Assembly (NCBI GenBank): GCA_963695545.1
Contig: OY968796.1
Span: 2,720,001 to 2,784,000, forward strand
DNA length: 64,000 bases
Direction of reading: 5' to 3'
Origin: Terriglobia bacterium
Lineage (GTDB): Bacteria > Acidobacteriota > Terriglobia > Acidiferrales > UBA7541
Within the stretch, counting starts at the first letter, position 1. Each line of letters starts with the position of its first letter. The notes beneath the pieces were generated by a model, which was not told where the DNA came from, searched no databases, and saw nothing but the letters and a program-made list of their open reading frames with translations. Position numbers and translations under genes: made by a program. Of the stretch, positions 879-57,499 are shown one piece after another.

Positions 879-3020
879 TCACCTTTCAACTGTGATCTCA
901 TACCACGTCGTCACCGGCTGCCCGAGATGAATCTTCCAGCTGTCTCCGAGCTGTTCAGCTTTCGTCGGAGCACCGAGCGGCTGTCCCGCGCCGTCGATTG
1001 GTTGGACGTCGACCCCGCGCGCGCCTTGCAAGCCGGTCAGCGTAATCGTCCCTTTTACCTGATCGATCAGCGACGGCGAATCTCCCCAATTGGTCACATC
1101 CGTTCCCGCCGTATTCCATTGTTGCCCCGTATTCTCGACGCGCCCTCCCGCAACCAGAAGCAGCTTCGAAGCTTGATCGATCGGTTTCTCGTCGAGCGAA
1201 CTGAGTTCGATCGTGCAAAAAGCGTTATCCACCTGCGCCCCAAGATTGCTCACGGCTTTTTCATTCGCGCGCACGAATCCGATCAGCGCCTGGCTTCGCG
1301 GCGTATCGACGGTGACCACTCCGCCCTGCTGCGGCGACGTATACCACGTAAGCTGCCGCGTGTCGGACACGATGGGATCGGGCGCCGCCTCTTTCGGAAA
1401 AGTTTGCGTCGGGGGCCCATCGAGCGACGAAATCCGCACCTCATGTTCGAGCGGCAGATAGAGCGGAAAGCCGAGCGTAAAGTAAGGCCGGTCGGTCGTC
1501 GGCAGAATCATCGTGTCAAAAACTTGCTCCGCCGTGTAAGAACGTTCCACCACGCTGCGCGCCGTCTCCACGTCGCCACGCAGAAACAGCAGCGCGCCCG
1601 CCGCAAGCTCCGGCATTTTTACCGGATCGAGTCCGATGTCGAATGCGTCGCCCACATACGGCTTCCACGCCGGATCGAGTTTCGGTTCAAACGTGTACCA
1701 CATGATCGCGTCCCAATCCTGCAGCGCGCCGTAAGCGGCCAGGATCGGAATTCCTTCGCTGTCGTAGTCGTTCGGAAACGGATTATTCACTTCGCTCACG
1801 GTGTAAGGCTTTCCCGCGATCGCCGAGCGCGATAGCTCCACCACCGTCGAGTTCAACGGATCGTTCACCATCGGAGAGCGCCGAGAGTAAACACCCGGAT
1901 GCTCCCAATAATCGTGCCCATCGATCACGTCCATCGACGACATCGCGCGCAAAATCGGATAGCCGCTATTCGAGTGGCTGTGGTCCGCCGTCGCGATCAC
2001 CAGCGATTTCGATCCCAGCGTCTGCTTTATGTAATTCTCCATGTCCGCAAAATAATCGTGTTGCAGATCGTTGTAGAACTCCGCCTCCGCGTAAATGCGT
2101 TCCGGCGGCGCCGCGGCCTCCACTGGCGCCCCGCCGGGAAACGGCCCGCGCGGCTGCATCAGCGGCACGGCCGCACTGTCGTCTTTCACGCCGGCGATCG
2201 CGCGCAGCTTTGCGATCTCCTCGGCCGTGCGATGCTTCGCGAGCCACACGTTGTACATGTCCGTCAGCTCTTGCTCGTAGAACGGCGACGGTCCGCGAAA
2301 TCCGATGTTGATCGCGTTCTCGTTGTTGATTTCGACGAGCGCCACCGCCGGATCGTCCGTGTACTTTAGTTTCGTGTACGGATTCAGATGCCCCAGCAGT
2401 TGCTTCGCGTAATCTTTCTGCAATTCGATCATGCGCCGATCGTAGAGTGAAGTTCCCTTGGAACCTTGTCTCAACTGATCCGCATCCTGCACGCCGTCCC
2501 CAGCCTTGAACGGCCGCCCGACCAATAGATTGAAATCGATATAAATCCCGCGCTTCTCAAGCTCGGCGATAAAAAAATCCTCCCGATCGAGCGCGTCCGC
2601 GTCGAAACTCTGCGTGTCCGCGCGACCGGCGTCAATTAGCCCGCGCGGCGTCAGCAGATCGAGAAACTGAAACCGCACGCAATCCACGCCAAAGCGCGCC
2701 AACGTTCCCGCCCACAGCGCCGCGTCCGCTTTCGGCGGAATCTGTTGCGAGCCTTTGCTCCAATCCGTAATGTTCACGCCCCACAAGCGAATGCGCGCGC
2801 CGTCTCCCGTCGCCAAATGCCCATCCTTCACCTCGATAAATCCGTGTTTTCCCGCCGGCGCGTCGAGCAAGAACGACACATCCACCGGCGACGCCGTAAG
2901 CGCTCCCCGCCGATGATCCATCGTGAACGGCACCATCCCGTCCGTCGTCTGTGCCAGCAGCAAACTCCCACTCGCGGCAACGGCCAGCAGCAGCGCAATT
3001 ATCCTCACGCAGATTTTCAT
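879..3020 (-). CDS. Secreted clan GH-A glycoside hydrolase, GH148/GH5-like (paralog 2)
   Basis: Sec signal (MKICVRIIALLLAVAA; start 3020 after AAAGGGA). Motifs RLWGVN, VRFQFLD, NPYTKLKYTDDPAVALVEINNEN (acid/base NE), DGHDYW and TVSEVN (nucleophile). Family assignment is by motif recall. Confidence 0.7.
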   Translation of the reverse strand: MKICVRIIALLLAVAASGSLLLAQTTDGMVPFTMDHRRGALTASPVDVSFLLDAPAGKHGFIEVKDGHLATGDGARIRLWGVNITDWSKGSQQIPPKADAALWAGTLARFGVDCVRFQFLDLLTPRGLIDAGRADTQSFDADALDREDFFIAELEKRGIYIDFNLLVGRPFKAGDGVQDADQLRQGSKGTSLYDRRMIELQKDYAKQLLGHLNPYTKLKYTDDPAVALVEINNENAINIGFRGPSPFYEQELTDMYNVWLAKHRTAEEIAKLRAIAGVKDDSAAVPLMQPRGPFPGGAPVEAAAPPERIYAEAEFYNDLQHDYFADMENYIKQTLGSKSLVIATADHSHSNSGYPILRAMSSMDVIDGHDYWEHPGVYSRRSPMVNDPLNSTVVELSRSAIAGKPYTVSEVNNPFPNDYDSEGIPILAAYGALQDWDAIMWYTFEPKLDPAWKPYVGDAFDIGLDPVKMPELAAGALLFLRGDVETARSVVERSYTAEQVFDTMILPTTDRPYFTLGFPLYLPLEHEVRISSLDGPPTQTFPKEAAPDPIVSDTRQLTWYTSPQQGGVVTVDTPRSQALIGFVRANEKAVSNLGAQVDNAFCTIELSSLDEKPIDQASKLLLVAGGRVENTGQQWNTAGTDVTNWGDSPSLIDQVKGTITLTGLQGARGVDVQPIDGAGQPLGAPTKAEQLGDSWKIHLGQPVTTWYEITVER

Positions 3021-3040
3021 GGGATCCCTTTCCGTAGATC

Positions 3041-5218
3041 TCATCGTTGCACCGTAATCTCGTACCAGGTAGTGACCGTGTCTCCGATCGGAATCTTCCA
3101 GCTATCGCCAGCGTGCGCGGCATTGTCACTTGGCGCAGCACGCGTCGCCATAATCGGCGCGCCGACCGGCTGCCCCGCGCCATCGATCGGCTGCACGCTG
3201 ACCGCGCGCGCGCCCACGATCCCGCGCAACGTTATCGTGCCCTTCACCTGCTCGATGAGCGTCGGCGAACCTCCCCAATTCGTCACCGCCGTCTCCGCCG
3301 AATTCCACACTTGCCCCGTGTTCTCAACGCGCCCTCCCGCGATCAACAGCAGCTTCGACGCCTGCGCAATGGGCCGCGCGTCAAGCGAACTTAGCTGGAT
3401 CGTACAAAAAGTATTCTCAACCTCAGCAGCGAGATTGCTCACCGATTTACCATTTGCCCGCACAAATCCAACGAGCGCCTGGCTTCGCGGTGTGTCGATC
3501 GTCACCAAGCCAGTTTGTTGCACCGAGGTGTACCACGCGAGCTGCCTCGTGTCGGAAACGATCGGATCGGGCATCGCGCCTTCAGGAAAAACCTGAGTCG
3601 CAGGCCCATCCAGCGACGAAATCCTCACTTCATGCTCGAGCGGCAGATAAAGTGGAAACCCCGGCGTAAAGTAAGGCCGATCGGAAACCGGCAAAATCAT
3701 ACTGTCGAAAACTTGTTTCTCCGAGTACGAGCGTTCCACCACACTCCGCGCCTTTTCCACGTCGCCGCGAAGAAACATCAACGCCCCCGCTGCCAGCTCC
3801 GGCATTTTTACCGGATCGAGTGACACATCGTACGGATCGCCTACGTAGGGCTTCCATGCCGGATCGGCTTTCGGTTCAAACGTGTAAAACATCACCGCGT
3901 CCCAGTCCTGCAGCGCTCCATAAGCGGCGTCGATCGGAATCCCCTCGCCGTTGTAATCGCTCGGAAACGGATTGTTCGTCTCGCTCACCGTGTAAGGCTT
4001 CCCCGCGATCGCCGAGCGCGATAGCGAGACCACGCTCGAATTCAGCGGATCGTTGACCATCGGAGATTTGTGCTCGTACTGCCACGAGGGAGGAGTCCAG
4101 TAAATATGTCCGTCGATTACGTCCATCGACGACGTGGCATGCAGAAACGGATAGCCGCTCGCCGCATGGTTGTGGTCTGCGCTCGCGATCATCAGCGATT
4201 TCGCCCCGACCGTCGTCCTCAGATAATTTTCCATGTCCACAAAATAATCGCGCTGCAAATCGTCGTAGAACTCCGCTTCCGTACGGACGCGCTCCTCCGC
4301 CACCGCGGCCTGCGGCGGAACCGGCCCGTTGTACGTCGCCAGAGGCTGCGGCTGGATAATTGGCACCGGCGTGTCGGCCCCTTGCACTCCCGCGATCTCG
4401 CGCAGCTCCGCGATTTGCTCCGGCGTACGATGCTTCGCCAGCCACTGGTTATATATGTCCGTCAGCTCCTGCACATAAAACGGCGAGGGCAAGCGAAACC
4501 CCACGTTGATCGCGTTCTCATTGTTGATTTCAACGAACGCCACCGCCGGGTCTTCCGCGTACTTCAACTTGGTGTAGGGATTCACGTGGTCCAGCAGCTT
4601 CTGCGCGTAATCCTTCTGCAATTCAATCAAACGCTTGTCGAACAGCGAGACTCCTTTCGCGCCTAAACCCAGAAGTTGCGCATCCTCCACGCCATCGGCC
4701 GCCTTGAACGGCCGCACCACCAGAAGATTGAAATCGATATAGATGCCGCGCTTTTCAAGCTCGGCCAGGAAATAATCTTCCCGATCGAACGCTTCCGCGT
4801 CGAATGCTTGCGTGTCCTCGCGTTTGCCATCGATCAGCCCGCGCGGCGTCTGGAAATCCAGAAACTGCAGCCGCACGCAATTCACGCCGTAGCGCGCCAG
4901 CGTCGCCGCCCACATCGGCGCGTCCTCTTTAGACGGAATTTGCTGCGAACCCGGACTCCAATCCGAGATGTTCAGGCCCCAGAAGCGAATGCGCTGGCCG
5001 TCCGCGGTCGCCAGATGCCCGTCCTTCACCACCACGAAACCATGCTTGCCCGCCGGCGCATCCAGCAGGAAAGAAACATCCACCGGCGATGCTGCGAGCG
5101 CCCCGCGGCGATTATCCATCGTGGAGGGCACCATGCCGTTCGTCGTCTGCGCGACGAGCACGCCTCCGCTTCCGGCCAGGGCGAGCAATAGCGCGATCGT
5201 CGTGACGCAGATTTTCAT
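3041..5218 (-). CDS. Secreted clan GH-A glycoside hydrolase, GH148/GH5-like (paralog 1)
   Basis: Colinear and highly similar to 879-3020 (EINNEN, DGHIYW, TVSETN, SPMVNDPLNS, DPVKMPELAAGAL); signal peptide. Confidence 0.7.
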   Translation of the reverse strand: MKICVTTIALLLALAGSGGVLVAQTTNGMVPSTMDNRRGALAASPVDVSFLLDAPAGKHGFVVVKDGHLATADGQRIRFWGLNISDWSPGSQQIPSKEDAPMWAATLARYGVNCVRLQFLDFQTPRGLIDGKREDTQAFDAEAFDREDYFLAELEKRGIYIDFNLLVVRPFKAADGVEDAQLLGLGAKGVSLFDKRLIELQKDYAQKLLDHVNPYTKLKYAEDPAVAFVEINNENAINVGFRLPSPFYVQELTDIYNQWLAKHRTPEQIAELREIAGVQGADTPVPIIQPQPLATYNGPVPPQAAVAEERVRTEAEFYDDLQRDYFVDMENYLRTTVGAKSLMIASADHNHAASGYPFLHATSSMDVIDGHIYWTPPSWQYEHKSPMVNDPLNSSVVSLSRSAIAGKPYTVSETNNPFPSDYNGEGIPIDAAYGALQDWDAVMFYTFEPKADPAWKPYVGDPYDVSLDPVKMPELAAGALMFLRGDVEKARSVVERSYSEKQVFDSMILPVSDRPYFTPGFPLYLPLEHEVRISSLDGPATQVFPEGAMPDPIVSDTRQLAWYTSVQQTGLVTIDTPRSQALVGFVRANGKSVSNLAAEVENTFCTIQLSSLDARPIAQASKLLLIAGGRVENTGQVWNSAETAVTNWGGSPTLIEQVKGTITLRGIVGARAVSVQPIDGAGQPVGAPIMATRAAPSDNAAHAGDSWKIPIGDTVTTWYEITVQR

Positions 5219-5400
5219 AGGATCCCTCGTGAAACGTGCGGAGGTTCAAGGCACGTTCGCAGATTCCAAGCCAAATTCGGCGCCCGCGCACAAAACGGAC
5301 GCCACAACTCTACGCCCGTCACCTCCTGATGCGTATCCCACGAAAGTCGGATACCCCTTTCCTTGATGATTTGCGCCGCACCCGCCCTGTGGATATCCAT

Positions 5401-5750
5401 TCGAATACTCATAATGTAGTTGACAACTATTTTCGTCTGCGCTATACTCCTACGTGTTCGCTGATAACATTTCGAATTGCCCCTCGCCTCGCGGCTCTTT
5501 CCGCCCGCGGTTTGCCCTCGCTCATCTCGGATCGCCTGCCAAATTTCATCGATTCATTGCCATCGATCCGCACTCATCTGCACCAAAGTGCCTCTCCAAC
5601 CCCTTTATTTTCACACTCATGCAAAAGAGTGCGCATCTTATTGAAAATAAACACGATCAAGTCTATTGCGTTCACACTCATCCCCACTCTTCCCCTGCAA
5701 GTCCTTTGTTTTCTGTTCTTTCGCAAATTACACCGGGGGTGTATATACCC
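5401..5750 (+). repeat. Dispersed structured intergenic element, copy A (candidate ncRNA or non-autonomous element)
   Basis: Ordered motif match to the reverse complement of 54766-55106: TCGAATACT, TTGAC-N-TAT(A/G)CT, TTCGAATTG, CAACCCSTTTATTTTCA, TGCGCA..ATTGAAAA, AAGTCT, CACTCTT, CGCAAA, ACCGGGGGTGTA. Hairpin TTTATTTTCA(5604-5613)/TGAAAATAAA(5642-5651). Confidence 0.75.
5420..5448 (+). promoter_or_regulatory. Near-consensus sigma70 promoter
   Basis: TTGACA (5420-5425), 17 bp spacer, TATACT (5443-5448). Confidence 0.8.
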
Positions 5751-5902
5751 ACTCTCCTACTAAAGGCGGATTCACACCCCACCCCAACTGTGCTCCGATG
5801 CACCCGCGCGGAAATGCCCGAGCGTGAGTTGCGCCTGCCGCCCGCCGAAGAATCGACGGCCACGCCACCGAACGCCGAAATTCGCCAAAGAGGGAACGAG
5901 AC

Positions 5903-6787
5903 ATGAATATCCGCGAGCTTCCTCGCATCACGATCTGCCTGGCGCTCGCCCTGCTAACGTCGTGCACGGCAGCGCTCGCCCAGAAACCTGTCGTTGAGCT
6001 CTGGCCCAACGGCGCTCCCGGCTCGGAAGGCAAGACGTCGCCGGAGACCGTGCGCATTTCCGATCAGGGCGATCACGTGATCTCGAATGTCAATCGCCCT
6101 TCGATCACCGTCTATCTCCCGACCCCGGATAAAGCCACCGGCGCGGCGGTCGTCGTCATCCCCGGCGGCGGCCACAGTGAAATTTGGATCGACCACGAAG
6201 GCTACACCGTCGCCGCGTGGTTGAGTGATCACGGCGTCGCCGCCTTCGTCCTCAAATATCGACTCGCGCACGCTCCCGGTTCCACCTACACCATCGAAGG
6301 CACCGAATTGGACGACACCCAGCGCGCCATTCGTTTGGTACGCAGCCGCGCTGCCGAATGGGGCGTCGATCCGAATCGCATCGGCGTGATCGGGTTTTCC
6401 GCTGGCGGCCAATTGGCCGCGCTGGCCGGCACGCGCTACGACTCCGGCAACGCCGCCGCGACGGACCCGATAGATCGCGAAAGTTCCAGGCCCGACTTTC
6501 AGGGATTGATTTATCCCGGACTTCCCGACACTCCGCCTCTCGCTCTCACAAAGGACACGCCTCCGGCATTTCTAGCCTGCGGCGCTGATGACCGCCCCAA
6601 TGTTTCCGAGGGCGTTGCACGACTCTATCTTGCAATGAAGCAGGCCGGCATCCCGGTCGAGCTCCACATTTTCGCCGGCGTCGGACACGGATTCGGTATG
6701 CGCAACACCAACACCGGAAACATGAGCACGTGGACGGACCTGTTTTACGGCTGGCTAGGCACCAGCGGTTTCCTGACGCACAAATAA
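5903..6787 (+). CDS. Secreted alpha/beta-hydrolase esterase (BD-FAE / acetyl-xylan-esterase-like)
   Basis: Signal peptide; PGGGH oxyanion loop, GFSAGG nucleophile elbow, GADD and GVGHGFG (Asp, His); RBS AGAGGG. Confidence 0.85.
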   Translation: MNIRELPRITICLALALLTSCTAALAQKPVVELWPNGAPGSEGKTSPETVRISDQGDHVISNVNRPSITVYLPTPDKATGAAVVVIPGGGHSEIWIDHEGYTVAAWLSDHGVAAFVLKYRLAHAPGSTYTIEGTELDDTQRAIRLVRSRAAEWGVDPNRIGVIGFSAGGQLAALAGTRYDSGNAAATDPIDRESSRPDFQGLIYPGLPDTPPLALTKDTPPAFLACGADDRPNVSEGVARLYLAMKQAGIPVELHIFAGVGHGFGMRNTNTGNMSTWTDLFYGWLGTSGFLTHK

Positions 6788-45530: not shown

Positions 45531-46412
45531 ATGATGACTGCGCGCGCGGCAAGGCTCGGAATCATGGCTAGCGGAATCGCGGTTCTGGCTCTCGGAGTGC
45601 TGGGGAGCGCGCAATACGCGCGTTTGTGCGCGCGCGCGAAAATTGCGGCAACTGCTTCAGTCCCTTCGGCCGCAGCCCGAATTTCAATCGATTGGCAGGA
45701 CCGCTTTGCGGATGGGACGCCGGATTTCTTGCGGCTTGATTCGCCGGCGGATCAGGAGGCGTTTCGGCGCTGGTTCACGCTGATCGCGGAATATCAGGCG
45801 CTGCGGCCGCCCGCGGATGTGCCGGCCGAGATCGACGATTGCGCCGCGCTGCTGCGCTATTCGTATCGCAACGCGTTGCGTGAACACGATGCCGAGTGGG
45901 TTCGTGAAAATAGCATTGTGCCGCCATCGGCGCTGCCGTCGATTGAAAAGTACAACTATCCGATGACGGCGCTGGGCGCGGAGCTGTTCCGTGTGCGGCC
46001 CGGGCCGTTTCGCGCGGAAGATCTGAAGAACGGCGCTTTCGCGGAATTCGCCGATGCCAAAACGCTGAAGGATTTCAACACCTACTTTCTCTCGCGCGAT
46101 GTGCGCGTCGCGCGGCCGGGCGATATTTTGTTTTTCCGCCAACTCGAACAGAACTCGCCATTCCACTCGATGATCTTCGTCGGCCGCAGCCAGTGGTTGT
46201 TTGGCGCTGGTCCCGATCGCGGGCGGCCCGAAAGCGGAGCCGACGATTTCCTCGTGTACGACACCGGTCCGATTGGCAAGGCTCGCGGCCAAATGAGGCG
46301 GATGCGTTTGACGGAGTTATTGCGGTATCCTTCGCCGCGCTGGCGCCCATTGGCCGGCAATAGCAATTTCCTCGGAGTCTATCGGTGGAACATTTTGAGA
46401 GGACCGGAGTGA
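45531..46412 (+). CDS. DUF1175 / YfaT-like protein
   Basis: FRRWF, DCAALLRY, PGDILFF, HSMIF and RWRP...NSNFLGVYR; TGATG-coupled to the alpha-2-macroglobulin gene. Confidence 0.8.
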   Translation: MMTARAARLGIMASGIAVLALGVLGSAQYARLCARAKIAATASVPSAAARISIDWQDRFADGTPDFLRLDSPADQEAFRRWFTLIAEYQALRPPADVPAEIDDCAALLRYSYRNALREHDAEWVRENSIVPPSALPSIEKYNYPMTALGAELFRVRPGPFRAEDLKNGAFAEFADAKTLKDFNTYFLSRDVRVARPGDILFFRQLEQNSPFHSMIFVGRSQWLFGAGPDRGRPESGADDFLVYDTGPIGKARGQMRRMRLTELLRYPSPRWRPLAGNSNFLGVYRWNILRGPE

Positions 46413-49400
46413 TGCAACGCGCACCACTGTGGCGGAATTTTCTGCGCTGGAATCCGGCGTTCTGGAGAATGTCGGGCCGCAGAGCGCTGCTCCTGCTCTC
46501 TCTCGTTCTTTTCGCCGGCATCGTTCCCGCCGGCGTGCGCGGCGCTGACGAAGCCTACTTCTCGATCTCCACCAGCAAAACATTTCTTCCGGGCGAACAA
46601 ATCGGCATTCATCTGTACGCCTCCGGCGTGGACGCGCTGGAATTCCGTATTTACAAAGTCAAAGATCCGGTTGCGTTTTTCGAGGGTCTGGACGATCCGC
46701 ACCAATTTGGTCACGTCTCCGAAAACGAAGAAATCGAAACGCCGAGCCGCCTCGAGCTCTTCTACGATTGGAAACAGGAACTGTGGGGCGAGATTCGCGA
46801 ATTCCTCCGCATGCAATTTTCGTGGCGTTCGCGCGCCGCGATTCGCGCCGAAGAGTTGCGCGCAAACGGCACGAAGATCGGCAGCGCGGCCGTGTTCGCG
46901 CAGGCGCCCGTGCTGAACAGTTCGCAACTCGTCGCGCGCTGGCGGCAAGCGCTGCCTCCGCGATTTATTTCTGAGTCGGAGGATGTGCCCGTTAACTCGC
47001 TGCCGAAGGGCGCGTATCTGGTCGAAGCGACCGACGGCACGCTGCGCGCCTACACCATCGTGATCGTCAGCGATCTGGGCGTGCTCACCAAGTCCGCGCC
47101 CGGGCAAGTCGTAGCGTTCGCAGCGGATCGGCAAACCGGCGTGCCGGTGGCCGGCGCGGACGTGCGCGTTTGGGCGGACAAGAAAGAAGACGCCCACGTG
47201 CAGACCGACGCGACCGGAATCACAGAAGCTCAATTGCCGGCCGGCCAGTTCAACGACGTGCGCGTCCTCGCCGTGCACGGTGACGACGTTGCCGTGGTGA
47301 TGCCTTATTCTTACAACGTCAGCAGCGATCCCACGCAGGACTGGACCGGATACGTCTACACCGATCGGCCGGTTTATCGCCCCGGCGACACCACGCATTT
47401 CAAAGTCGTTCTGCGATCGCGCAAACAAGTGGGCTTTCAATCCATCTATCAAGTTCCCGCCGGGCAGAACTTGCAGGTGCTGATCGAAGACCCCGCGAGC
47501 AAAGCGGTTTTGCAATCGAACTTTACGGTTTCGTCGTTCGGCACGCTGCACGGCGATCTCGATCTTCCAGCCGGCGCCGCGCTCGGTTACTACTCGATCG
47601 CGGTCAATAGCGCTGGCGGCCAATCGTATCCGATCTCCGGCGGATTCTACGTTGAGGACTACAAGAAGCCGGAGTACGCCGTGAAGGTCACGCCGGCTAT
47701 GCCGCGCGTTCTGCAAGGTGGATTTATCGAGGCCACTATCGACGCCGAGTATTACTACGGCGAGCCGGTGGCCGGAGCGGCCGTCACTTACGACGTGCAC
47801 ACGTCTCCGTATTATTCGCCGTTCATCGATCGCAATTCGGACGACGATTCCGACGCGGACGCCGGGCCAGCGGACTCCGACGATAGCGCGAGCGACGACA
47901 GCGACGATCAGGATTATTCGGGCGATGAAATTTCGGAGCAGACCGGTCAATTGGATGCAAACGGACAATTGCAGATTCGCATTCCGACTCGTGCGGACAA
48001 AGACCACCAGGATATGGTGTACAGAATCGAGGCGCGCGTCACCGACGCCGCCAATCGCGAAATCGACGGGCACACCGCCGTCATCGCTACCTACGGAAGT
48101 TTCCAGGTGGGCATTTCGCCCGAGAATTACGTGTACAAGGCCGGCGATACCATTCGCGCGACCGCCGTGGCCAAAGACTATGACGGAAACCCGATTCAAA
48201 CCGCCGTCCACGTCGTACTCGTGACGCAGAGTTCCACGGATCCGCAGAACCCTGGAGTTACGGTCGAATCGCACGACGCGCAAACGGCAGCGGACGGCAC
48301 AGCCGTCGTCACCTTTGCGGCGCGCGACGCGGGAGATTTTGTTCTGCGCGTCTCGGCGCGCACACCCGAAAAGCGCACGGTGAACGGTGATTCGTGGCTT
48401 TGGATCACGGGCGCCGCCGAAAATTGGTGGAGCGGAGACACCAAGGGATTCCGAATCATCCCGGACAAGAAATCGTACAAAGTGGGCGACACCGCGCACT
48501 TGCTTGTGCTCACCGGCGTGCCCGATGCCTATTTGTTCGTGAACAAGGAAGCCAGAACGGTTCAAGGCCGATGGGTGGTTCACGGAACATCGCCGGCCGT
48601 AACCGTGAACGTGACCTTCGAGGCCGCGCAGCAACCGAACGTATACATTTCGATTTCGTTTTTCCACGGCAACACGCTCTATCAGGCCAGCAAGAATTTC
48701 AATTTGCCCGCCGTCCAGCAAAAACTGCAAGTCGCGATCCAACCATCGGCAACGCAGTTCGAGCCGGGTCAGAAAGCTACCTACACGATCCAGGCGCACG
48801 ATTCCGATGGAAAACCCGTTGTGGGTGAATTCAGTCTCGGCATCGTGGATGAAGCCATCTACGCCATTCATCCCGATGCGAGCGGCGACATCAGCAACGC
48901 GTTTTTCGGACCGGCCTACGACAACGTTTCGTCCGATTCGTCGCTCAATTTTTATTTCAGCGGAGAAGCTGGCGCGAAAGAGATGTTCCTCGCGTACGAC
49001 AGCGCAAATCGCCCGCGCCCGCTCGCGCAATTGAAGCCGACGGAAACGCTGGTGCAGCCGAAGGTGCGAAAGGTGTTTCCGGATACCGCGCTGTGGATGG
49101 CGGACATCGATACCGACGCGAAAGGGCAAGCCATCGCGCAGCTCGAGTTTCCGGACTCGCTCACGAGCTGGCGCGCCACGGTGCGCGGCGTCACCGTGGA
49201 CACCAAAGTCGGTAGCGCGACCAACAACGTGATCGTGCGCAAGAATTTGATCGTGCGCCTGGTGGTGCCGCGATTCCTCCGGCAGGGCGACGAAGTCGTG
49301 GTGTCGGCGATCGTGGACAATTATCTGCCGACCGCGAAGATGGCCCAGGTATCTCTCGACGTGAAAGGCTTGGACGTGTTGAGTGGCGCGACGACGCAAG

Positions 49401-51163
49401 TGCAAGTCGCAAGCAAAGGTGAAGCGAAAATCGATTGGCGCGTGCGCGCACAGTCGGTGCCGTCGGCGGACATTATCGGCAAAGCACTGACCGATCAGGA
49501 ATCCGACGCGATGGAGCTCACGCTGCCCATACTGCCGGTGGGCGTGAAGCAGACCGATGCGAAATCGGGCTCGCTGGCCGCGGCCGAACAGGATGAAACA
49601 ACTACGGTGACTCTACCCGGCGATCCGGCTCTCGCGGCGCCGGCGCTGGATATTAATCTCAGTCCCTCGATTGCCGGCAGTATTTTTGCGGCGCTCGATT
49701 ACCTGACGAGCTATCCATATGGCTGCACCGAGCAAACCATGTCGAGCTTCTTGCCGGATATTGTCGTCGCCCAAGCGATGAAAGATTTGCAACTCACGAC
49801 GACTGTAGACACGCCGGAACTCGAACAACAAATCCAAGCCGGAATGGCGCGTCTGAAAGATTTCCAGCATGCGGACGGCGGTTGGGGCTGGTGGAAAGAC
49901 GACGATAGTCTCGTATTCATGACGGCCTACGTCGTGAGCGGTTACGGGCAGGCGCACGCCGCCGGTTACGACGTCGATTCCGATTCGCTCGCGAACGCGG
50001 AAGGTTATCTGCATACCGCGCTGCAAAACAATCCGGACATGCGCGCGGATTTGCGCGCGTACGTGGTGTACGCGCTCGAGCTGAATGGCGCGGCGCAGAG
50101 CGATGAACTCGCAGCGGCTTGGGATGCGCGCGGTTCGATGACCACGCAGGGTCTTGCCATGCTGGGTCTCGCGTTCCAAGGCACGGGCGATTCTGCGAAG
50201 GCGCAGGAAATGGCGGCGAAAATCGAATCTCTCGCCACGGTTGACAATCAGGAAGCGTACTGGGCCTCGGATTATGATTCGTTCATGGAATTCGAGATCG
50301 AAGATTCCGCGGAAACCACGGCGTACGCGGTGCGCTTGCTGAGTGTGGCGAAACCTTCGAGCGCACTGCTGCCGAAGGCCGCGTTCTGGCTGGTCAATAA
50401 TCGCAACGGCGGATATTTCTGGGACAGCACGAAGCAAACCGCGATGGTTGTTTTCGGCCTCACCGAATATTTGAAAGCCAGCCACGAACTCGGCGCCAAT
50501 TTCCGCGCCGACGTGTACGTCAACGGCAAGCAGGTGACTTCCAAACAATTCACCGCAGCGGACGCGTTCAATCCGGCGCAGCCGGTGATTCATCTCGATT
50601 CTTCGCAGCTGCAGTCCGGAGTGAACCAAATCCGCATCCACAAAACGGGCGCAGGGCGACTTTATTGGTCGGCGAGCGGATCCTATTATTCGACGGACAA
50701 GCATCTGGTGCAGAACAACAAGCTTTCGCTGAACATCACGCGCGATTATTTCAAGATGGTTCCGGAACAAACCGGCGGAAAGATTGTGTACGACCTCGAT
50801 CCGCTCGCGGGCGATTTGCAGGTGGGCGATGTCGTAGCCGTGCGCATCACGCTGAGCGGCAGTGAATGGCGTTATCTGCTGATGGAAGATCCGATTCCCG
50901 CGGGAGCGGAATTCATCACCAGCGACAATCTCTACGAATTGAAACAGCCGCCTTCGTGGTGGGAATCCGATTATACCAGCCGCGAATTTCACGACGATCA
51001 TGCCGCCATCTTCCAGGATTATTTCACCGGGCAGCGCGAGTACGTGTATCTGCTGAAAATTGTGAATCCCGGGAAATTCCAGGTGAGTCCGGCTGAAGTG
51101 CAGCCGATGTACCAGCCGTCGATTTTCGCGACGAGTGACGCGACCACCGTGGAGGTGAAGTGA
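46412..51163 (+). CDS. Bacterial alpha-2-macroglobulin with intact thioester motif
   Basis: YTDRPVYRPG, VEDYKKPEY, VRKVFPDTALW, FPDSLTSW, YPYGCTEQT (CxEQ thioester), QHADGGWGWW, EDPIPAG and PMYQP. Confidence 0.95.
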   Translation: MQRAPLWRNFLRWNPAFWRMSGRRALLLLSLVLFAGIVPAGVRGADEAYFSISTSKTFLPGEQIGIHLYASGVDALEFRIYKVKDPVAFFEGLDDPHQFGHVSENEEIETPSRLELFYDWKQELWGEIREFLRMQFSWRSRAAIRAEELRANGTKIGSAAVFAQAPVLNSSQLVARWRQALPPRFISESEDVPVNSLPKGAYLVEATDGTLRAYTIVIVSDLGVLTKSAPGQVVAFAADRQTGVPVAGADVRVWADKKEDAHVQTDATGITEAQLPAGQFNDVRVLAVHGDDVAVVMPYSYNVSSDPTQDWTGYVYTDRPVYRPGDTTHFKVVLRSRKQVGFQSIYQVPAGQNLQVLIEDPASKAVLQSNFTVSSFGTLHGDLDLPAGAALGYYSIAVNSAGGQSYPISGGFYVEDYKKPEYAVKVTPAMPRVLQGGFIEATIDAEYYYGEPVAGAAVTYDVHTSPYYSPFIDRNSDDDSDADAGPADSDDSASDDSDDQDYSGDEISEQTGQLDANGQLQIRIPTRADKDHQDMVYRIEARVTDAANREIDGHTAVIATYGSFQVGISPENYVYKAGDTIRATAVAKDYDGNPIQTAVHVVLVTQSSTDPQNPGVTVESHDAQTAADGTAVVTFAARDAGDFVLRVSARTPEKRTVNGDSWLWITGAAENWWSGDTKGFRIIPDKKSYKVGDTAHLLVLTGVPDAYLFVNKEARTVQGRWVVHGTSPAVTVNVTFEAAQQPNVYISISFFHGNTLYQASKNFNLPAVQQKLQVAIQPSATQFEPGQKATYTIQAHDSDGKPVVGEFSLGIVDEAIYAIHPDASGDISNAFFGPAYDNVSSDSSLNFYFSGEAGAKEMFLAYDSANRPRPLAQLKPTETLVQPKVRKVFPDTALWMADIDTDAKGQAIAQLEFPDSLTSWRATVRGVTVDTKVGSATNNVIVRKNLIVRLVVPRFLRQGDEVVVSAIVDNYLPTAKMAQVSLDVKGLDVLSGATTQVQVASKGEAKIDWRVRAQSVPSADIIGKALTDQESDAMELTLPILPVGVKQTDAKSGSLAAAEQDETTTVTLPGDPALAAPALDINLSPSIAGSIFAALDYLTSYPYGCTEQTMSSFLPDIVVAQAMKDLQLTTTVDTPELEQQIQAGMARLKDFQHADGGWGWWKDDDSLVFMTAYVVSGYGQAHAAGYDVDSDSLANAEGYLHTALQNNPDMRADLRAYVVYALELNGAAQSDELAAAWDARGSMTTQGLAMLGLAFQGTGDSAKAQEMAAKIESLATVDNQEAYWASDYDSFMEFEIEDSAETTAYAVRLLSVAKPSSALLPKAAFWLVNNRNGGYFWDSTKQTAMVVFGLTEYLKASHELGANFRADVYVNGKQVTSKQFTAADAFNPAQPVIHLDSSQLQSGVNQIRIHKTGAGRLYWSASGSYYSTDKHLVQNNKLSLNITRDYFKMVPEQTGGKIVYDLDPLAGDLQVGDVVAVRITLSGSEWRYLLMEDPIPAGAEFITSDNLYELKQPPSWWESDYTSREFHDDHAAIFQDYFTGQREYVYLLKIVNPGKFQVSPAEVQPMYQPSIFATSDATTVEVK

Positions 51164-51969
51164 TGGCGCGGCGGGGAATCGTGCGCGGCGCGCTGGTCGG
51201 CACGCTGCGCGATCGTCGGCTGTGGCTCCTGCAGTTTTTCGCGAATCCAGTTCTGGCGGTGCTGTTTGCAGTTTGGCTGCTGATTCCGGTGGCGAATGCT
51301 TGGTACGTCGTTTTGAACGTGCTCGTGGCGCTGGTGATTGCGGCGTCGGTGGTCGTTCTGCATGGAGGCACGCTCGATTATTTTCGCGATCGTGAACGGG
51401 ACGACAGCGCGCCCTTGAAGCCCGCATTTGTTCGGGCGCTGCGACATGTGCTCGCGATCGCTGTATGTGTGGCCGTGTTTTATTTGTTCTGGCGGCTCAT
51501 GGATCGTGTGGACGCGTATCAGGATTCGTTGCCGGCGTATTTGCGATCGATCATGCCGGTTTTCTTGCGGCGGCACATCACATTGGGATTTCTGGAATCC
51601 GCGTATGGCTGGAAGGTTTTTGCATTGCGCTGGTTGATTGTTCCTGGATTGATCTTGCCATTCGTGATTGCCGCTGCGGATCGAGGTTTTAGCGGCTTCG
51701 GCGGCGCGGGCTTCGCCGCTTGGAAACGCGCAGTGTGGTGCTTGTCGTATTGGGTTCTGCTGGTGGTGGCAGTCATCGTGGGAGTTTTGGCAACGCAGGC
51801 GGTCATGGCTTGGACGCCGAATCTCGCGGCTTCGACATTTCGGTTTGAAACAATCAGTTTGGTTGTACGCGCGATTTGCGCTTACGATCTCGGCCTGTGG
51901 GCTTGGGTGCTCGCGTGTTACGCGGTCGCGCACGCGTCGTCTGCTCCGGTTGACGAGGCGGCTCATTGA
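51163..51969 (+). CDS. Hypothetical multi-pass membrane protein
   Basis: About six hydrophobic segments; TGATG-coupled to the alpha-2-macroglobulin stop. Confidence 0.7.
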   Translation: MARRGIVRGALVGTLRDRRLWLLQFFANPVLAVLFAVWLLIPVANAWYVVLNVLVALVIAASVVVLHGGTLDYFRDRERDDSAPLKPAFVRALRHVLAIAVCVAVFYLFWRLMDRVDAYQDSLPAYLRSIMPVFLRRHITLGFLESAYGWKVFALRWLIVPGLILPFVIAAADRGFSGFGGAGFAAWKRAVWCLSYWVLLVVAVIVGVLATQAVMAWTPNLAASTFRFETISLVVRAICAYDLGLWAWVLACYAVAHASSAPVDEAAH

Positions 51970-53708
51970 GGCGCGCAGGTTGAAGCGTCAGCGGGAATGC
52001 CGGACGCGAGCCATTCGATCACTGTTTGCCTTCCGTGCAGTTTGACCAGCGACGCGACGCGGTTTTGTGCCGCGGCATAGGCTTTTTCCTCGTCATTGCG
52101 GTTGGCAGCGTCTAGAAGGCCGGCTTCCATCTGCTGGTCCGTCATGGCGGAAGCATTCGCCGGCTGCGCGTCGGGATTCGCGAGATAGAGGACGATCCCT
52201 TCGCGAAACCAGAGCGGCGTGTTCGGTTTTGCGCGCGACTCCACCAGAAGATGAAAGAATTCATGGCGCAGCGTGGATTCGACGATGGAGCGGCGCTGCA
52301 ATTCAATGAGCGGCTGCAGTCGAATGACGTGGCCGCGCACGGAGGCGGCGATCCAGCCGGGCTCGCCGGTGGTATCGCGATAAGAATCCATCGTCGGAAA
52401 CAATTGGAGTTGCGGGCGGAAAGCGAGTTGCCAGCCGATGGCGCGCTCGTCGTCCTCGAGGATGCGGTCGGCGATGGACAAGATTGCGGCATCGGCCTGT
52501 GGATTCGTGCTGAGGAGATCGAGGCGTTCGCTCGATTGTTTCTGCCAGATTTCGGCGCGAGCCGAGACGAGTTCGGTGTCGGGATAATAGAAGTTCAGGA
52601 TGTCGCGATAGGTTTTTCTCTCGCGCGCCATTTCTTCCGCGCCGGCCTGGCAGAGGCCGACGCCGTGGCCCGATCCGCGGCCTGAGAAAACAATCTGGCC
52701 GCCGGTGCTGTTGACGTCGTAGAGATCGCTGCGAATTTTGTTCCAGCCCAGGGCTCGATCAACCGCAAAACGAAACGTGGAAGCGGCAAGCGGAACATTC
52801 GCGGGAGTTCCGCCGGTGAAATTCAAGCGTTGCGCGCGGCCGCTCGCGGTGCGTGAGGCGACTTCGAGATTTGTCCAGTGCGCTGGGAGCAAGAGGCCGG
52901 CGGCACGCAGGGCGTGATCGATATCGGCGATGGAGATCGTGGTCTCCCACTTAAGAGTGCCGGCGGCGAGGCAGTATGGATCGGCATGCGCGACGAGATA
53001 GGGCTCGTGATTCGTGGGCCACTCCTCGGAGCTGGCCGCGATGGCACCGCCGCAATTCTGATGGTAGTAAGTTTCGGCGGGAGCGCCGGCGTAGGACAAG
53101 GTTTGGCCGCGCGTGTCGTCTACTGCGGCGGCGATTCGCGGGGCAACCGCATCGAGGCTCATGGCCTGGCAATGCGTAGTGTCGCAGAAATCGAACCCCT
53201 GCTTCGCGTGCCTGCCGCGAAAACGCAGAGCGTAAGTGCGGATTGCGACCGCCATGGCTTTCAAGGATTCCGATTGCTTGAAATCGCCGCTTTCGGCAGC
53301 GAGGACGGCCTTGACGTAATCTTCGATCGGCATATTGACCGTGATCAGAAGCTGGCCGCCGAGCGTGCGGATGCGCAGTGGGAACTCCGATGAGAATGGC
53401 GGCGCATCCGCGCTGGCCGGCGGATGGAGTTGGTAGTTTCCCGCGATGTAAAGGTCCGGCGTTGTTTGCTCGGCGGTGGATTGCGAGGGTTCGAGCGTTA
53501 GTCCGGAAATTGTGGCCGCAACGGAGAGGCTCGCGCCGGTTTTGGCGGGACACGTAGGGCAGGTTCGCCAGGTGATCGCGTCGTCTGTGGCGGCAATGGT
53601 GATGTTTGCTGGCGGGTGCGCGGCGTAGAGGCGCACATCGAAGCTCTGCGCGCGCAGCGCGCACGCGGGAGCGACGCAGAGAATTGCGGCGATGAGTTTC
53701 CATTTCAT
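51963..53708 (-). CDS. SpoIID/LytB-domain protein (YfaQ-like) with a C-terminal HExxH peptidase-like domain
   Basis: Signal peptide; YVKAVLAAE, LKAMAVAIRTY, DFCDTTHCQ, YHQNCGG, GHGVGLCQ and ILNFYYP; C-terminal LRHEFFH...PLWFREG. Confidence 0.85.
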   Translation of the reverse strand: MKWKLIAAILCVAPACALRAQSFDVRLYAAHPPANITIAATDDAITWRTCPTCPAKTGASLSVAATISGLTLEPSQSTAEQTTPDLYIAGNYQLHPPASADAPPFSSEFPLRIRTLGGQLLITVNMPIEDYVKAVLAAESGDFKQSESLKAMAVAIRTYALRFRGRHAKQGFDFCDTTHCQAMSLDAVAPRIAAAVDDTRGQTLSYAGAPAETYYHQNCGGAIAASSEEWPTNHEPYLVAHADPYCLAAGTLKWETTISIADIDHALRAAGLLLPAHWTNLEVASRTASGRAQRLNFTGGTPANVPLAASTFRFAVDRALGWNKIRSDLYDVNSTGGQIVFSGRGSGHGVGLCQAGAEEMARERKTYRDILNFYYPDTELVSARAEIWQKQSSERLDLLSTNPQADAAILSIADRILEDDERAIGWQLAFRPQLQLFPTMDSYRDTTGEPGWIAASVRGHVIRLQPLIELQRRSIVESTLRHEFFHLLVESRAKPNTPLWFREGIVLYLANPDAQPANASAMTDQQMEAGLLDAANRNDEEKAYAAAQNRVASLVKLHGRQTVIEWLASGIPADASTCAPQ

Positions 53709-54631
53709 TGTGGCCGCCGATTTTTTGCAAACGCGGCGAAGACCGATTGAGCGACGGCGGCGGCATCCATCCCGCGGCCTTGTTCTAGAAAGACGACCAT
53801 CACGATTTCCGGATGGTCGGCTGGCGCGTAGCCGACGAAAAAGCCGTGCGTGCGCGGCGTGTTCGCGGATGCGGCGGTTCCGGTTTTGCCGGCGATCTTC
53901 ATGCTGTCTACAAATGCAGCATGCGCCATGCCAAATGCGACGGAGTCCTCAAGGCCCGCGAAGACGGGAGCGTCGGCGCCGAGATCGCCGGTGCGCTTTC
54001 GTAGCGCGAGCTGGCGATAGGCTTCGAGGAGACTTATCGGCGTGACTTCGATTCCTCGGGCGCCGAGAGCTTCGAGCTGCAAATCCTGCTGATTCGCTGG
54101 GACGGAGATGTGGCCGACGGATTCGTTGTCCGCGAGGCCGCTTGGGGAGTCGAGGCCAGCGCGACGGAAGGCGGTGACCAGTTCGAGAGCGCTGAGTCGT
54201 CGCGCGACCGTTGCGACGTAGGTGTTGCAGGAATAGGCGATGGCGTTTTCGGCGTTCAGTTCGGTGATGGATGCGGGGTGTGTGCAGTCCATTTCGATTG
54301 AGCCGATGCGGAATTTGCGCCGGCAAAAAATGCGCTGAGCGGGATCGAGTTTCCCGGATTCGAGAAGCGCGTCCAGGACGAAGGGCTTGAGAGTGGAGCC
54401 GGGTCGCTCGAGACTCTTTTCGGCGGATTCGAGATTGTGCGCGGCGAGGATCGCGCCGGAGGAGACATCCATCACCACGAGCGCGCCGGAGTGCGCGGCC
54501 ATGGCTCGGTCGGCGGCTTGCTGGAGGATGGCATCGCGCGCGGGCGCGGCGGCGGAGGGAGAAACGGCCAGGGCTGCGGCGAGGAACATCGTGGCCGAGC
54601 GGGAACTGAGTTGTGGTTGCACGATTTTCAC
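53705..54631 (-). CDS. Stand-alone penicillin-binding transpeptidase-domain protein (start uncertain: 54631 GTG or 54589 ATG)
   Basis: PGSTLKP (SxxK), YSCN (SxN) and AGKTGTA (KTG); ATGA-coupled to the SpoIID gene. Confidence 0.85.
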   Translation of the reverse strand: MKIVQPQLSSRSATMFLAAALAVSPSAAAPARDAILQQAADRAMAAHSGALVVMDVSSGAILAAHNLESAEKSLERPGSTLKPFVLDALLESGKLDPAQRIFCRRKFRIGSIEMDCTHPASITELNAENAIAYSCNTYVATVARRLSALELVTAFRRAGLDSPSGLADNESVGHISVPANQQDLQLEALGARGIEVTPISLLEAYRQLALRKRTGDLGADAPVFAGLEDSVAFGMAHAAFVDSMKIAGKTGTAASANTPRTHGFFVGYAPADHPEIVMVVFLEQGRGMDAAAVAQSVFAAFAKNRRPQ

Positions 54632-54765
54632 GGGCCTCAATATGCATCGGGGGCGGCGCGGTGTCCAAACTAAACGTCGCTGGCGAGGGAGCGGCCGCGC
54701 GCACTGCGGATTTTGCCGCGGCGAGTGAAGTCGTAAGTTGATGAAAAACAATCGGATGAATTCGA

Positions 54766-55106
54766 GGGGGGGTACACCCCCGGTATGTTTTGCGTAACGG
54801 ACTCATAAGGCAGGAGTTCCAGGAAAAGAGTGCAGATGTGTGCGCAATTGATTGCAAATAAAAGACTTAGCGACGGGCCTTTGTCCAGTGTTTTCAATGA
54901 TTTGCGCATTTTTTTGGAGGAGTGCGGAATCGATTGAAAATAAACGGGTTGCTGGGGCAAGAAAAGAGGGGCGCGGATGAATGCAAATTGGCTAGACGCG
55001 CCGCGGGGAAAAGTCGAGGCAGCGAACAATTCGAATGGATTGCGCGTGAACATTCAGAAGCATAGCATGGATATATCTCAGCGTCAAGTAAAATATAAGT
55101 ATTCGA
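54766..55106 (-). repeat. Dispersed structured intergenic element, copy B (candidate ncRNA or non-autonomous element)
   Basis: The reverse complement carries the same ordered motifs as 5401-5750; inverted repeat TTTTCAAT(54891-54898)/ATTGAAAA(54933-54940); terminal GGGGG-TGTA-CCCCC stem. Confidence 0.75.
55059..55087 (-). promoter_or_regulatory. sigma70 promoter of element copy B
   Basis: TTGACG (55087-55082), 17 bp spacer, TATGCT (55064-55059). Confidence 0.7.
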
Positions 55107-55133
55107 TATAATACTCACAGGCCGGCTTGGAAC

Positions 55134-57370: not shown

Positions 57371-57385
57371 GCCGCTGGAGGATAA

Positions 57386-57409
57386 CGCAGAGGCGCAGAG
57401 GACGCGGAG
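57386..57409 (+). repeat. Short CGCAGAGG-type direct repeat between convergent genes
   Basis: CGCAGAGG CGCAGAGG A CGCGGAG. Confidence 0.45.
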
Positions 57410-57499
57410 CCTAGCAGAGACGGAACGACAACCGAAAGCACTTCTTCTGCAAACCGTAAAGGCGTGCCCCGACGACGGCCATTTGCGCGGTGATTTCTG

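Follow-up and report, generated by a model that had tools for sequence, protein, structure and literature searches.

An evenly spaced family of promoter-bearing elements with leaderless open frames in a Ca. Acidiferrales genome, possibly a grid of packaging sites

Introduction

The small terminase (TerS) of SaPI elements hijacks a large terminase (TerL) both at the SaPI pac site and at pseudo-pac sites, according to the part of the published account used here (PMC6687093). The element family described below is like SaPIs and PICIs, as that part presents them, in that a small protein encoded by the element is predicted to redirect another element's TerL to the element's own site, and in that further sites are spread over the chromosome. 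It differs in that modules for integration, replication and repression are all missing and nothing excises as a unit, in having about 110 selected, promoter-bearing and evenly spaced sites where the satellites have chance look-alikes, and in carrying a Cys3His finger where they carry a helix-turn-helix.

A second comparison is with RcGTA, the gene transfer agent (GTA) of Rhodobacter, with gp1 as its TerS. In the portion of PMC6854486 on which I draw, the layout of TerS includes a C-terminal segment for TerL, and the TerS of GTAs is without a DNA-binding domain. The present case shares with RcGTA, so far as that portion goes, a widely kept and mostly single-copy head and terminase cluster and, in the position of TerS, a short protein with no evident DNA-binding domain and a conserved C-terminal segment. 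GTAs package at random and have no known sites, on the same partial authority, whereas the present proposal has a further TerS-like protein that is site-specific, as well as a grid of sites; the cluster here is a candidate GTA. In T3 and T7, a pause by RNA polymerase starts packaging (from the relevant part of PMC3276506). Here too a promoter lies upstream of the proposed cut site and transcription would be needed to reach it, although the promoter is a host sigma-70 promoter on the chromosome, the leader is translated and there is no phage polymerase.

The element also calls to mind short dispersed repeats: MITEs and the Correia, RUP, BOX, ERIC and REPIN families. With these it shares about 100 short intergenic copies and empty sites in relatives, and with Correia elements the carriage of promoters. 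It departs from them in being without terminal inverted repeats, target duplications and young copies, and in having selected leaderless translation, even spacing and its own cognate gene. The DNA uptake sequences DUS and USS are likewise signals evenly spread over chromosomes, possibly kept by a bias in gene transfer, but they are words of 9-12 nt, not composite promoter cassettes of 350 bp, and the element is proposed to act at packaging rather than at uptake.

No published description of the element was found in a literature search that stopped short of most subscription journals. Eichorst et al. (PMC5900883) describe clusters of acidobacterial prophages; the portion of that paper used here makes no mention of the element, and its abstract lists no subdivision-2 genome. 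Three properties fit no described repeat family: some 110 copies selected for translation with an unconserved product, a near-regular spacing of 37 kb, and a large cognate protein family. The element is real and under selection, and no known family was found to match it; it fails a defining test of structured RNA families, of MITEs, of PICIs and of conserved small genes alike. The mechanism that I propose for it is plausible and unproven.

Two copies in the window

The window, the whole stretch of 64,000 nucleotides that was analysed, is G000:2720001-2784000. G000 is a one-contig genome of 4.16 Mb with 60.6% GC; database labels of its protein homologs and motif matches read Ca. Acidiferrales / Acidoferrum, Acidobacteriota. 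A first-pass annotation of the window had pointed to two intergenic regions, copies A and B (Table 1), as homologous in opposite orientation. The motifs that it named in them are all where it placed them, the distance from the -10 box to the end motif is 295 nt in A and 286 nt in B as it said, and the homology is well beyond chance (the local score is 50, whereas 300 dinucleotide shuffles average 20.3 and never exceed 30). Its supposition that the two belong to a multi-copy family was borne out by the searches described below. It recognised no named RNA family in them, and Rfam gave no match. Of its overall reading, the dispersed, promoter-bearing family is supported and the structured non-coding RNA of about 290 nt is not. 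What escaped it are the conserved leaderless start and the frame kept open from there, the array of repeats, the zinc-finger gene that belongs to the element, the regularity of the spacing and the connection with a terminase cluster.

Table 1. Positions of the features of copies A and B in the window, and of the head cluster elsewhere in G000
Feature	Position	Strand	Remark
Copy A upstream operator-like site, CTGTGGA..TTCGAATA	5387..5409	+	
Copy A TCGAATACT	5401-5409	+	
Copy A sigma-70-type promoter, TTGACA-17-TATACT	5420..5448	+	TTGACA 5420-5425; TATACT 5443-5448
Copy A leaderless ORF	5454..5906	+	GTG, 150 aa, open through element
Copy A second TTCGAA site, TTCGAATTG	5471..5479	+	3' of start
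Copy A CCGCGG	5505-5510	+	
Copy A repeat array	5597..5727	+	four units of ~27 nt, second inverted; predicted protein-binding sites
Copy A 17-mer	5597-5613	+	
Copy A end motif, ACCGGGGGTGTA	5732-5743	+	
Copy A terminal G run, ACCGGGGGTGTATATA	5732..5749	+	
Gene 3' of copy A	5903..6787	+	host alpha/beta hydrolase, BD-FAE; outside element
Copy B upstream operator-like site	55098..55120	-	start motif 55106-55098
Copy B sigma-70-type promoter, TTGACG-17-TATGCT	55059..55087	-	-35 55087-55082; -10 55064-55059
Copy B leaderless ORF	54670..55053	-	ATG, 127 aa, open through element
Copy B second TTCGAA-site counterpart	55035-55027	-	
Copy B CCGCGG counterpart	55006-55001	-	
Copy B repeat array	54789..54951	-	17-mer 54951-54935
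Copy B terminal G run, then C run	54766..54784	-	end motif 54784-54773
Gene 3' of copy B	53705..54622	-	host transpeptidase domain; outside element
Head/terminase cluster	G000:3384434-3419758		outside window; bounds by eye

The two copies had been said to share no ORF. Both carry one, starting six bases past the -10 box, though the peptides are unlike, and that of copy B reads the first repeats in another frame than that of copy A. The stop codon of the copy A ORF overlaps the ATG of the following gene. Within the repeat array of copy A the AAGAGTGCGCA and CACTCTT blocks are near-invariant; its G run is the 3' limit of homology and lies near the limit of stop-codon avoidance. On the reverse strand the upstream site of copy A resembles a DnaA box. 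A short-read contig covers 4610-5998 with 0 differences, possibly from the source sample and hence not independent. No joint that skips copy A, as excision would leave, appeared in four contig sets (contigs drop rare variants).

The family in the genome

Iterated nhmmer finds 113 loci in G000 at E<=1e-3, copies A and B among them, or 111 once split pieces are merged, and the family is present in other Ca. Acidiferrales as well. The loci comprise 96 of type 1, the type in the window, and 17 of type 2, which has a different repeat. Across 60 type-1 cores the median identity is 68%, and even the closest full-length pair of copies reaches only 85.7%, which argues against a recent burst.

The order of parts is TTCGAA, the promoter TTGACA-17/18-TGnTAnnnT, a gap of 5 nt, ATG or GTG, a variable spacer, the repeats and the G run, with 156-472 nt (median 263) between start and G run. 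There are one to three TTCGAA sites per copy, often joined to a TTTCCACA motif, and 47 of the 49 genomic bins with this composite fall in elements. The array again consists of four units of about 27 nt, the second of them inverted. At the 5' end the homology is fuzzy.

Several likenesses were pursued. A direct repeat of the LexA type occurs with a spacer of 7 in 33/101 promoters, as against a spacer of 5 in 28/101; the lexA promoter of G000 itself has ATTC-N7-ATTC, and recA is preceded by a weaker look-alike. Likenesses to the XerC/D dif and IHF consensus were dropped by eye as partial only. Guide-like spacers were likewise rejected: of the variable regions of >=30 nt in a set of 89 loci, 15 match outside elements, as short matches resembling other dispersed repeats. 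Many type-2 copies in other genomes have GTTAAC about 10-20 nt past the G run (loci L137, L138, L145, L149-L152, L154, L159, L160, L162 and L163), a possible cut or target motif.

A start codon and a frame kept open

An ATG or GTG stands six bases past the -10 box in 89 of 94 well-scoring promoters, in a test where the start codon went unscored and the 19 of 113 loci below the promoter cut-off were dropped. Promoter-like matches have such a start in 78/92 cases inside elements and in 3/171 outside, and the same layout is found at 10 of the 2,433 genes of G000 predicted by home-made gene calls. From that start, the frame is open to the end of the element in 85 of the 90 copies whose end was located (101 loci have the start), compared with 16/90 and 13/90 for the other two frames. 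Counted by frame, stop codons number 7, 142 and 216 in about 8,000 codons each, fewest in the start frame. This bias is marked as far as the G run and fades within some 60-120 nt beyond it: the first 60 nt hold 18, 36 and 49 stops, and at 120-240 nt, with 61, 79 and 69, it no longer shows. The open frame is found in 60/65 copies before a same-strand gene and in 24/24 before a convergent gene (89 loci, one having been left out for a mis-called end).

A conserved family of small-protein genes was rejected as a reading: over the first repeat the copies divide 27:27 between two frames, and the frames agree in which columns are conserved (Spearman 0.68-0.84), with no consistent codon-position pattern. 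The frame is kept open in whichever frame has no stop, and the peptide itself is not conserved. Element ORFs look like genes, which would explain a class of spurious hypothetical proteins.

The same is seen in congeners, where 60 loci were fetched: the start is present in 42/46 good promoters, and its frame is open in 31/35 as against 3 and 0 in the other frames. A more distant set of 33 loci gave 31 that could be scored and 19 with a good promoter; ten of these 19 are leaderless and all ten are open, so translation is not universal. The subtype in other genomes that is without a leaderless start (L132, L135, L139, L142, L147, L153 and L158) has (T/C)(A/G)GGT(A/T)A near +1, sometimes followed by a GC hairpin.

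Of the bases in the transcript, 34% are C and 18% are G. Rho terminates C-rich, G-poor, unstructured RNA unless it is translated.

Tests for RNA structure

Rfam gave 0 matches in the window at gathering score, 0 over 5200-5950 at E<=10 and 0 in five loci at E<=0.1. The alifold consensus of 60 cores has 5 invariant pairs only, at -3.1 kcal/mol; in the sole long potential stem, pairing is no commoner than independence predicts; the pairs with the highest mutual information are neighbouring, non-pairing markers of subfamilies. The two window copies fold with stabilities of z -1.56 and -0.55. The first-pass claim that pairing persists between diverged copies finds no support in consensus fold, covariation or stability; absence of covariation was one of the two conditions that it had named, jointly, against its RNA reading. 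Constraint acts on primary sequence (TTCGAA, promoter, start, repeats and G run), not on RNA structure.

Spacing along the chromosome

Spacing was analysed in one genome, G000. The gaps between its copies have a mean of 37.5 kb, a median of 35 kb and a coefficient of variation (CV) of 0.56, where random intergenic draws give a CV of 0.98 +/- 0.09 with a minimum of 0.70. None of 20,000 draws was as even as observed, and the same holds for three stricter nulls with 10,000 draws apiece. Type 1 alone has a CV of 0.61 and each strand alone 0.71; the 17 type-2 copies taken alone are not regular, and a control repeat has a CV of 1.16. The mean gap is close to the span of about 35 kb of the head cluster described below, whose bounds were set by eye. 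Polarity of the replichore or KOPS type was rejected, the leading strand holding 47/101 copies, with no bias. In other genomes the sequence patterns caught 13 loci in G015 and 1 in G067/G082.

A zinc-finger gene family

Four G000 copies have a gene right after the G run. Its products, of 139-170 aa, are one family, with an invariant C-x9-C-x11-C-x2-H and a helical hairpin. This family is large (664 homologs; 2,186 clusters at 50% identity) and unannotated: it belongs to no Pfam, NCBIfam or meaningful PHROG family, and its Atlas neighbours are unnamed, the nearest named being DUF5763 at 0.84, a lead only. A structure model (pLDDT 73, pTM 0.47) has no Foldseek match at E<=0.001, and its best VIA Z is 6.6, to generic helical bundles. 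No longer, fused forms occur among 8,000 candidates (a weak indication). Neither IMG/VR nor GenBank phages hold the gene, and the repeat pattern has 0 matches in viral contigs.

The gene is found in 54/120 genomes of the family, with 1-13 matches each, and phylum-wide there are weak matches in 6/200 genomes. Whole genera have neither the gene nor the element motif. Element-rich genomes, defined by >=4 raw terminal-motif matches (30/121 genomes), have the gene in 29/30 cases, kin among them not being independent. Repeats and G run precede the gene in at least about 20 of 29 loci, 23 of which were inspected by eye; among 31 loci from more distant genomes, none has the gene 3' of the element.

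ORFs around the four gene-bearing copies include no integrase, replication or regulation module such as satellites of the PICI and SaPI type have in a unit of about 10-15 kb, and none of the 5 integrase matches adjoins them. Directly 5' of three of the four (L009, L011 and L012) are pairs that look by eye like toxin-antitoxin genes (PIN-type, HigBA-like). One gene-bearing copy, L011:2369-3055, has an internal tandem duplication of about 140 nt; its frame nevertheless stays open for 222 aa and meets the zinc-finger gene in an ATGA overlap.

A head cluster and its terminase

The tails of two G000 zinc-finger proteins have one further match, a 92-aa ORF in a phage-head cluster of about 35 kb, and three of the four proteins share the tail with it. 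The cluster contains TerL and a major head protein (PHROG). Its TerL is kept in 80/121 family genomes, mostly at one locus, and the closest TerL of a GenBank phage is about 33% identical. The cluster is a candidate gene transfer agent of Acidobacteriota, though it may be a prophage, because a replication-initiator-like gene is present (a weak PHROG match). No integrase was found inside the cluster, and in G000 it is interrupted by an IS.

Homologs of the 92-aa ORF exist in 18/120 relatives, in 15/18 within 1.3 kb 5' of terL; in G000 it sits 9 kb downstream within the cluster. Members of this family consist of two helices and a conserved tail, IxWDxPxP, and a DNA-binding domain is not evident in them, a layout that matches what is described for TerS, that of GTAs in particular, in the part of PMC6854486 used here. 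By position and layout only, then, the 92-aa protein is a candidate TerS; by sequence, it matches no named PHROG or PDB entry. Among 20 further terL loci, a similar tail stands on the upstream ORF in about half (by eye; profile match 3/20), and a zinc-finger gene upstream of terL in none.

Profiles of the 92-aa and zinc-finger families align over the last helix and tail (77%, E 2e-5), and the tail pattern occurs in 156/254 zinc-finger homologs against a mean of 33.5 in shuffles. A predicted complex of TerL with the C-terminal half of a zinc-finger protein reached 0.43 where the best of 3 controls reached 0.00, with contact agreement of >=93% between runs and a partner pLDDT of >=71. The mark set for the tool is reached by 116/157 solved and 2/215 mismatched pairs; of the pairs that reach it, just 18 solved ones, but both of the mismatched, score <=0.60, so that the prediction lends weak support to binding of TerL by the zinc-finger tail. 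The cluster TerL is absent (E<=1e-30) from 10/30 element-rich genomes and from 23/55 with the zinc-finger gene, several of them 98-100% complete. A large zinc-finger subfamily, one of the four G000 genes included, has an acidic end and no tail, and from one genome to the next the zinc-finger tail does not vary together with the tail of the resident TerS.

Gain and loss of copies

The first-pass annotation had suggested that orthologous loci be compared for empty sites, and such sites exist. That of copy A is empty in congeners G003 and G004; that of copy B, likewise empty in G004, is occupied by another subtype in G003. In the other direction, 28 of 60 congener loci have syntenic flanks in G000 (19 filled, 9 empty); the flanks mapped far apart for 13 (possible mis-mapping), and one flank only was found for 19. 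Congeners are about 80% identical to G000. At shared sites, judged by the 5' module, the G000 counterpart is among the 15 best of 101 in 15/24 pairs but the very best in only 3, and terminal motifs look by eye genome-specific. This suggests vertical descent with homogenisation among copies. No terminal inverted repeats or target duplication were seen at the copy ends examined or at the empty site of copy A, though a short target duplication could be lost because the flanks are only about 78% identical.

The facing gene lies on the same strand for 73/101 copies (p 9e-6) and is convergent for 28/101. Same-strand copies end in an ATGA overlap of stop and start in 11/73 cases and in an in-frame fusion in 10/73. 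Downstream genes are unrelated, the only recurrent element-specific family being the zinc-finger gene.

Transposase genes were noted near some copies. Five of six matches to a Y1 (RAYT-like) transposase are within 2.5 kb of a copy, compared with 14% of the genome; those near copies form 4 clusters, around G000 positions 1199000, 1387600, 1425000 and 1474700-1479100. Transposases that look IS1595-like by eye lie beside truncated type-2 copies at G000 246628-247506, 343647-344630 and 3687944-3688876, and insertion sequences of this kind may target element repeats.

A proposed role in packaging

I propose, with a probability of roughly 40%, that the copies form a grid of pac-like sites which an alternative small terminase recognises. 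The zinc finger would bind the repeats of the element and the tail of the same protein would dock on TerL, which would cut near the G run and fill phage-like heads with chromosomal DNA. Gene-bearing copies would then be minimal satellites, consisting of a site and an alternative TerS, and copies without the gene would be served in trans, with roughly one site to each headful. Transcription from the element promoter may have to reach the G run, as in T3 and T7, a weaker step in the argument. Translation indifferent to its peptide would shield RNA polymerase from Rho on RNA that is C-rich, G-poor and unstructured. Recombination from copy to copy and transfer by particles would be the likely sources of new copies. 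The proposal in its fullest form, that Ca. Acidiferrales chromosomes are pre-marked with a transcription-activated packaging grid, served by a zinc-finger TerS and a domesticated head cluster, with a leaderless ribosome licensing each site, is more doubtful. If packaging is the answer, then gene transfer in these abundant, mostly uncultured soil bacteria would be organised, genome-wide and directed to sites, by a system standing between GTAs, which package at random, and satellites, which package themselves. It predicts exact positions of read starts in data from virus-like particles of soil. In favor of packaging count the conserved start and open frame, the even spacing with a gap close to the span of the head cluster, the presence of the zinc-finger gene in 29/30 element-rich genomes, and the tail shared with the candidate TerS together with the predicted TerL complex. 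Against it count the element-rich (10/30) and gene-bearing (23/55) genomes without the cluster TerL, the subfamily that has no tail, the failure of tails to track each other by genome, the lack of a zinc-finger gene upstream of 20 further terL genes, the absence of gene and motif from the phage sets searched, the naming of the 92-aa protein by position and layout only, and the distant copies (9/19) that are not leaderless.

How do other explanations fare? A structured non-coding RNA family, the main reading of the first pass, would account for a promoter and a defined 3' limit in every copy, and the inverted repeats could pair; with no consensus fold, covariation or unusual stability, and with a start codon conserved and its frame open, it is scarcely credible. 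A non-autonomous element like a MITE, moved by some transposase or recombinase, does better, while still on the unlikely side. The transposase would bind the repeats as ends, the zinc-finger protein would have a regulatory or accessory part, target immunity would space the copies, and the open frame would lower polarity on host genes. Empty orthologous sites (9/28 syntenic congener sites are empty in G000), unrelated flanking genes, the excess of copies that point into a same-strand gene (73/101) and the Y1 matches close to copies (5/6) all favor it. It must then be explained why there are no terminal inverted repeats, no target duplication, a fuzzy 5' end and no young copies, why 19/28 syntenic sites are common to congeners only about 80% identical, and why the frame is open in all 24 copies facing a convergent gene. 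Nor does it explain the TerS-like tail. That tail is equally foreign to the idea that the copies organise the chromosome, with the zinc-finger protein oligomerising on the arrays and constant transcription and translation setting supercoil or domain boundaries about 37 kb apart. Even spacing on both strands, the absence of replichore bias, long vertical persistence and the DnaA-box-like upstream motif are all as this idea would have them, yet so patchy a distribution (gene in 54/120 genomes, whole genera with neither gene nor motif), the gain and loss of copies and a zinc-finger gene that is multi-copy and inside the element make it rather improbable.

Two further possibilities give the zinc-finger protein other work to do. 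It might be an inducible mimic of a small terminase that draws the TerL of an invading phage to some 110 sites of the host, the heads being either filled with host DNA or wasted. One preprint, in the part of it used here, deals with a defence aimed at the terminase complex (10.1101/2025.02.27.640495). All the evidence for a terminase link applies equally to such an anti-phage decoy, which moreover accounts for genomes without a resident TerL and would sit well with the toxin-antitoxin-like genes seen by eye upstream of 3/4 gene-bearing copies. A decoy has no need, however, of a promoter and open frame at gene-less sites, and the resemblance of the tail is to a cluster of the host itself, one that is mostly single-copy; I regard the decoy as rather improbable. 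Alternatively, the copies could be promoter-leader cassettes under regulation, or sponge RNAs without structure; the Cys3His protein would bind the repeats in the RNA, and a ribosome on the leaderless frame would control read-through into the host gene. The conserved promoter with its operator-like site fits, and so do the orientation toward same-strand genes and the overlaps and fusions with them, although in a GC-rich genome these last are plausible by chance. The downstream genes share no function, the 28 copies that face a convergent gene keep all features, one repeat is inverted as for DNA sites, and even spacing goes unexplained, all of which makes cassettes or sponges very improbable.

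Other features of the window

Directly 5' of the promoter of copy B, on the opposite strand, is a 672-aa ORF with no Pfam match (55352-57370, +); no counterpart of it was found at the syntenic site in G003 and G004, both congeners. Two adjacent ORFs of like size, about 720 aa, again with no Pfam match, occupy 879-3044 and 3041-5218 on the minus strand; the second has close homologs in G003 and G004. At 46385-54622 an alpha-2-macroglobulin gene converges on genes for SpoIID-domain and transpeptidase proteins, an ordinary envelope-protection locus. Short REP-like repeats, common in the genus, occur at about 57380-57425 and in many element spacers, inside or beside copies.
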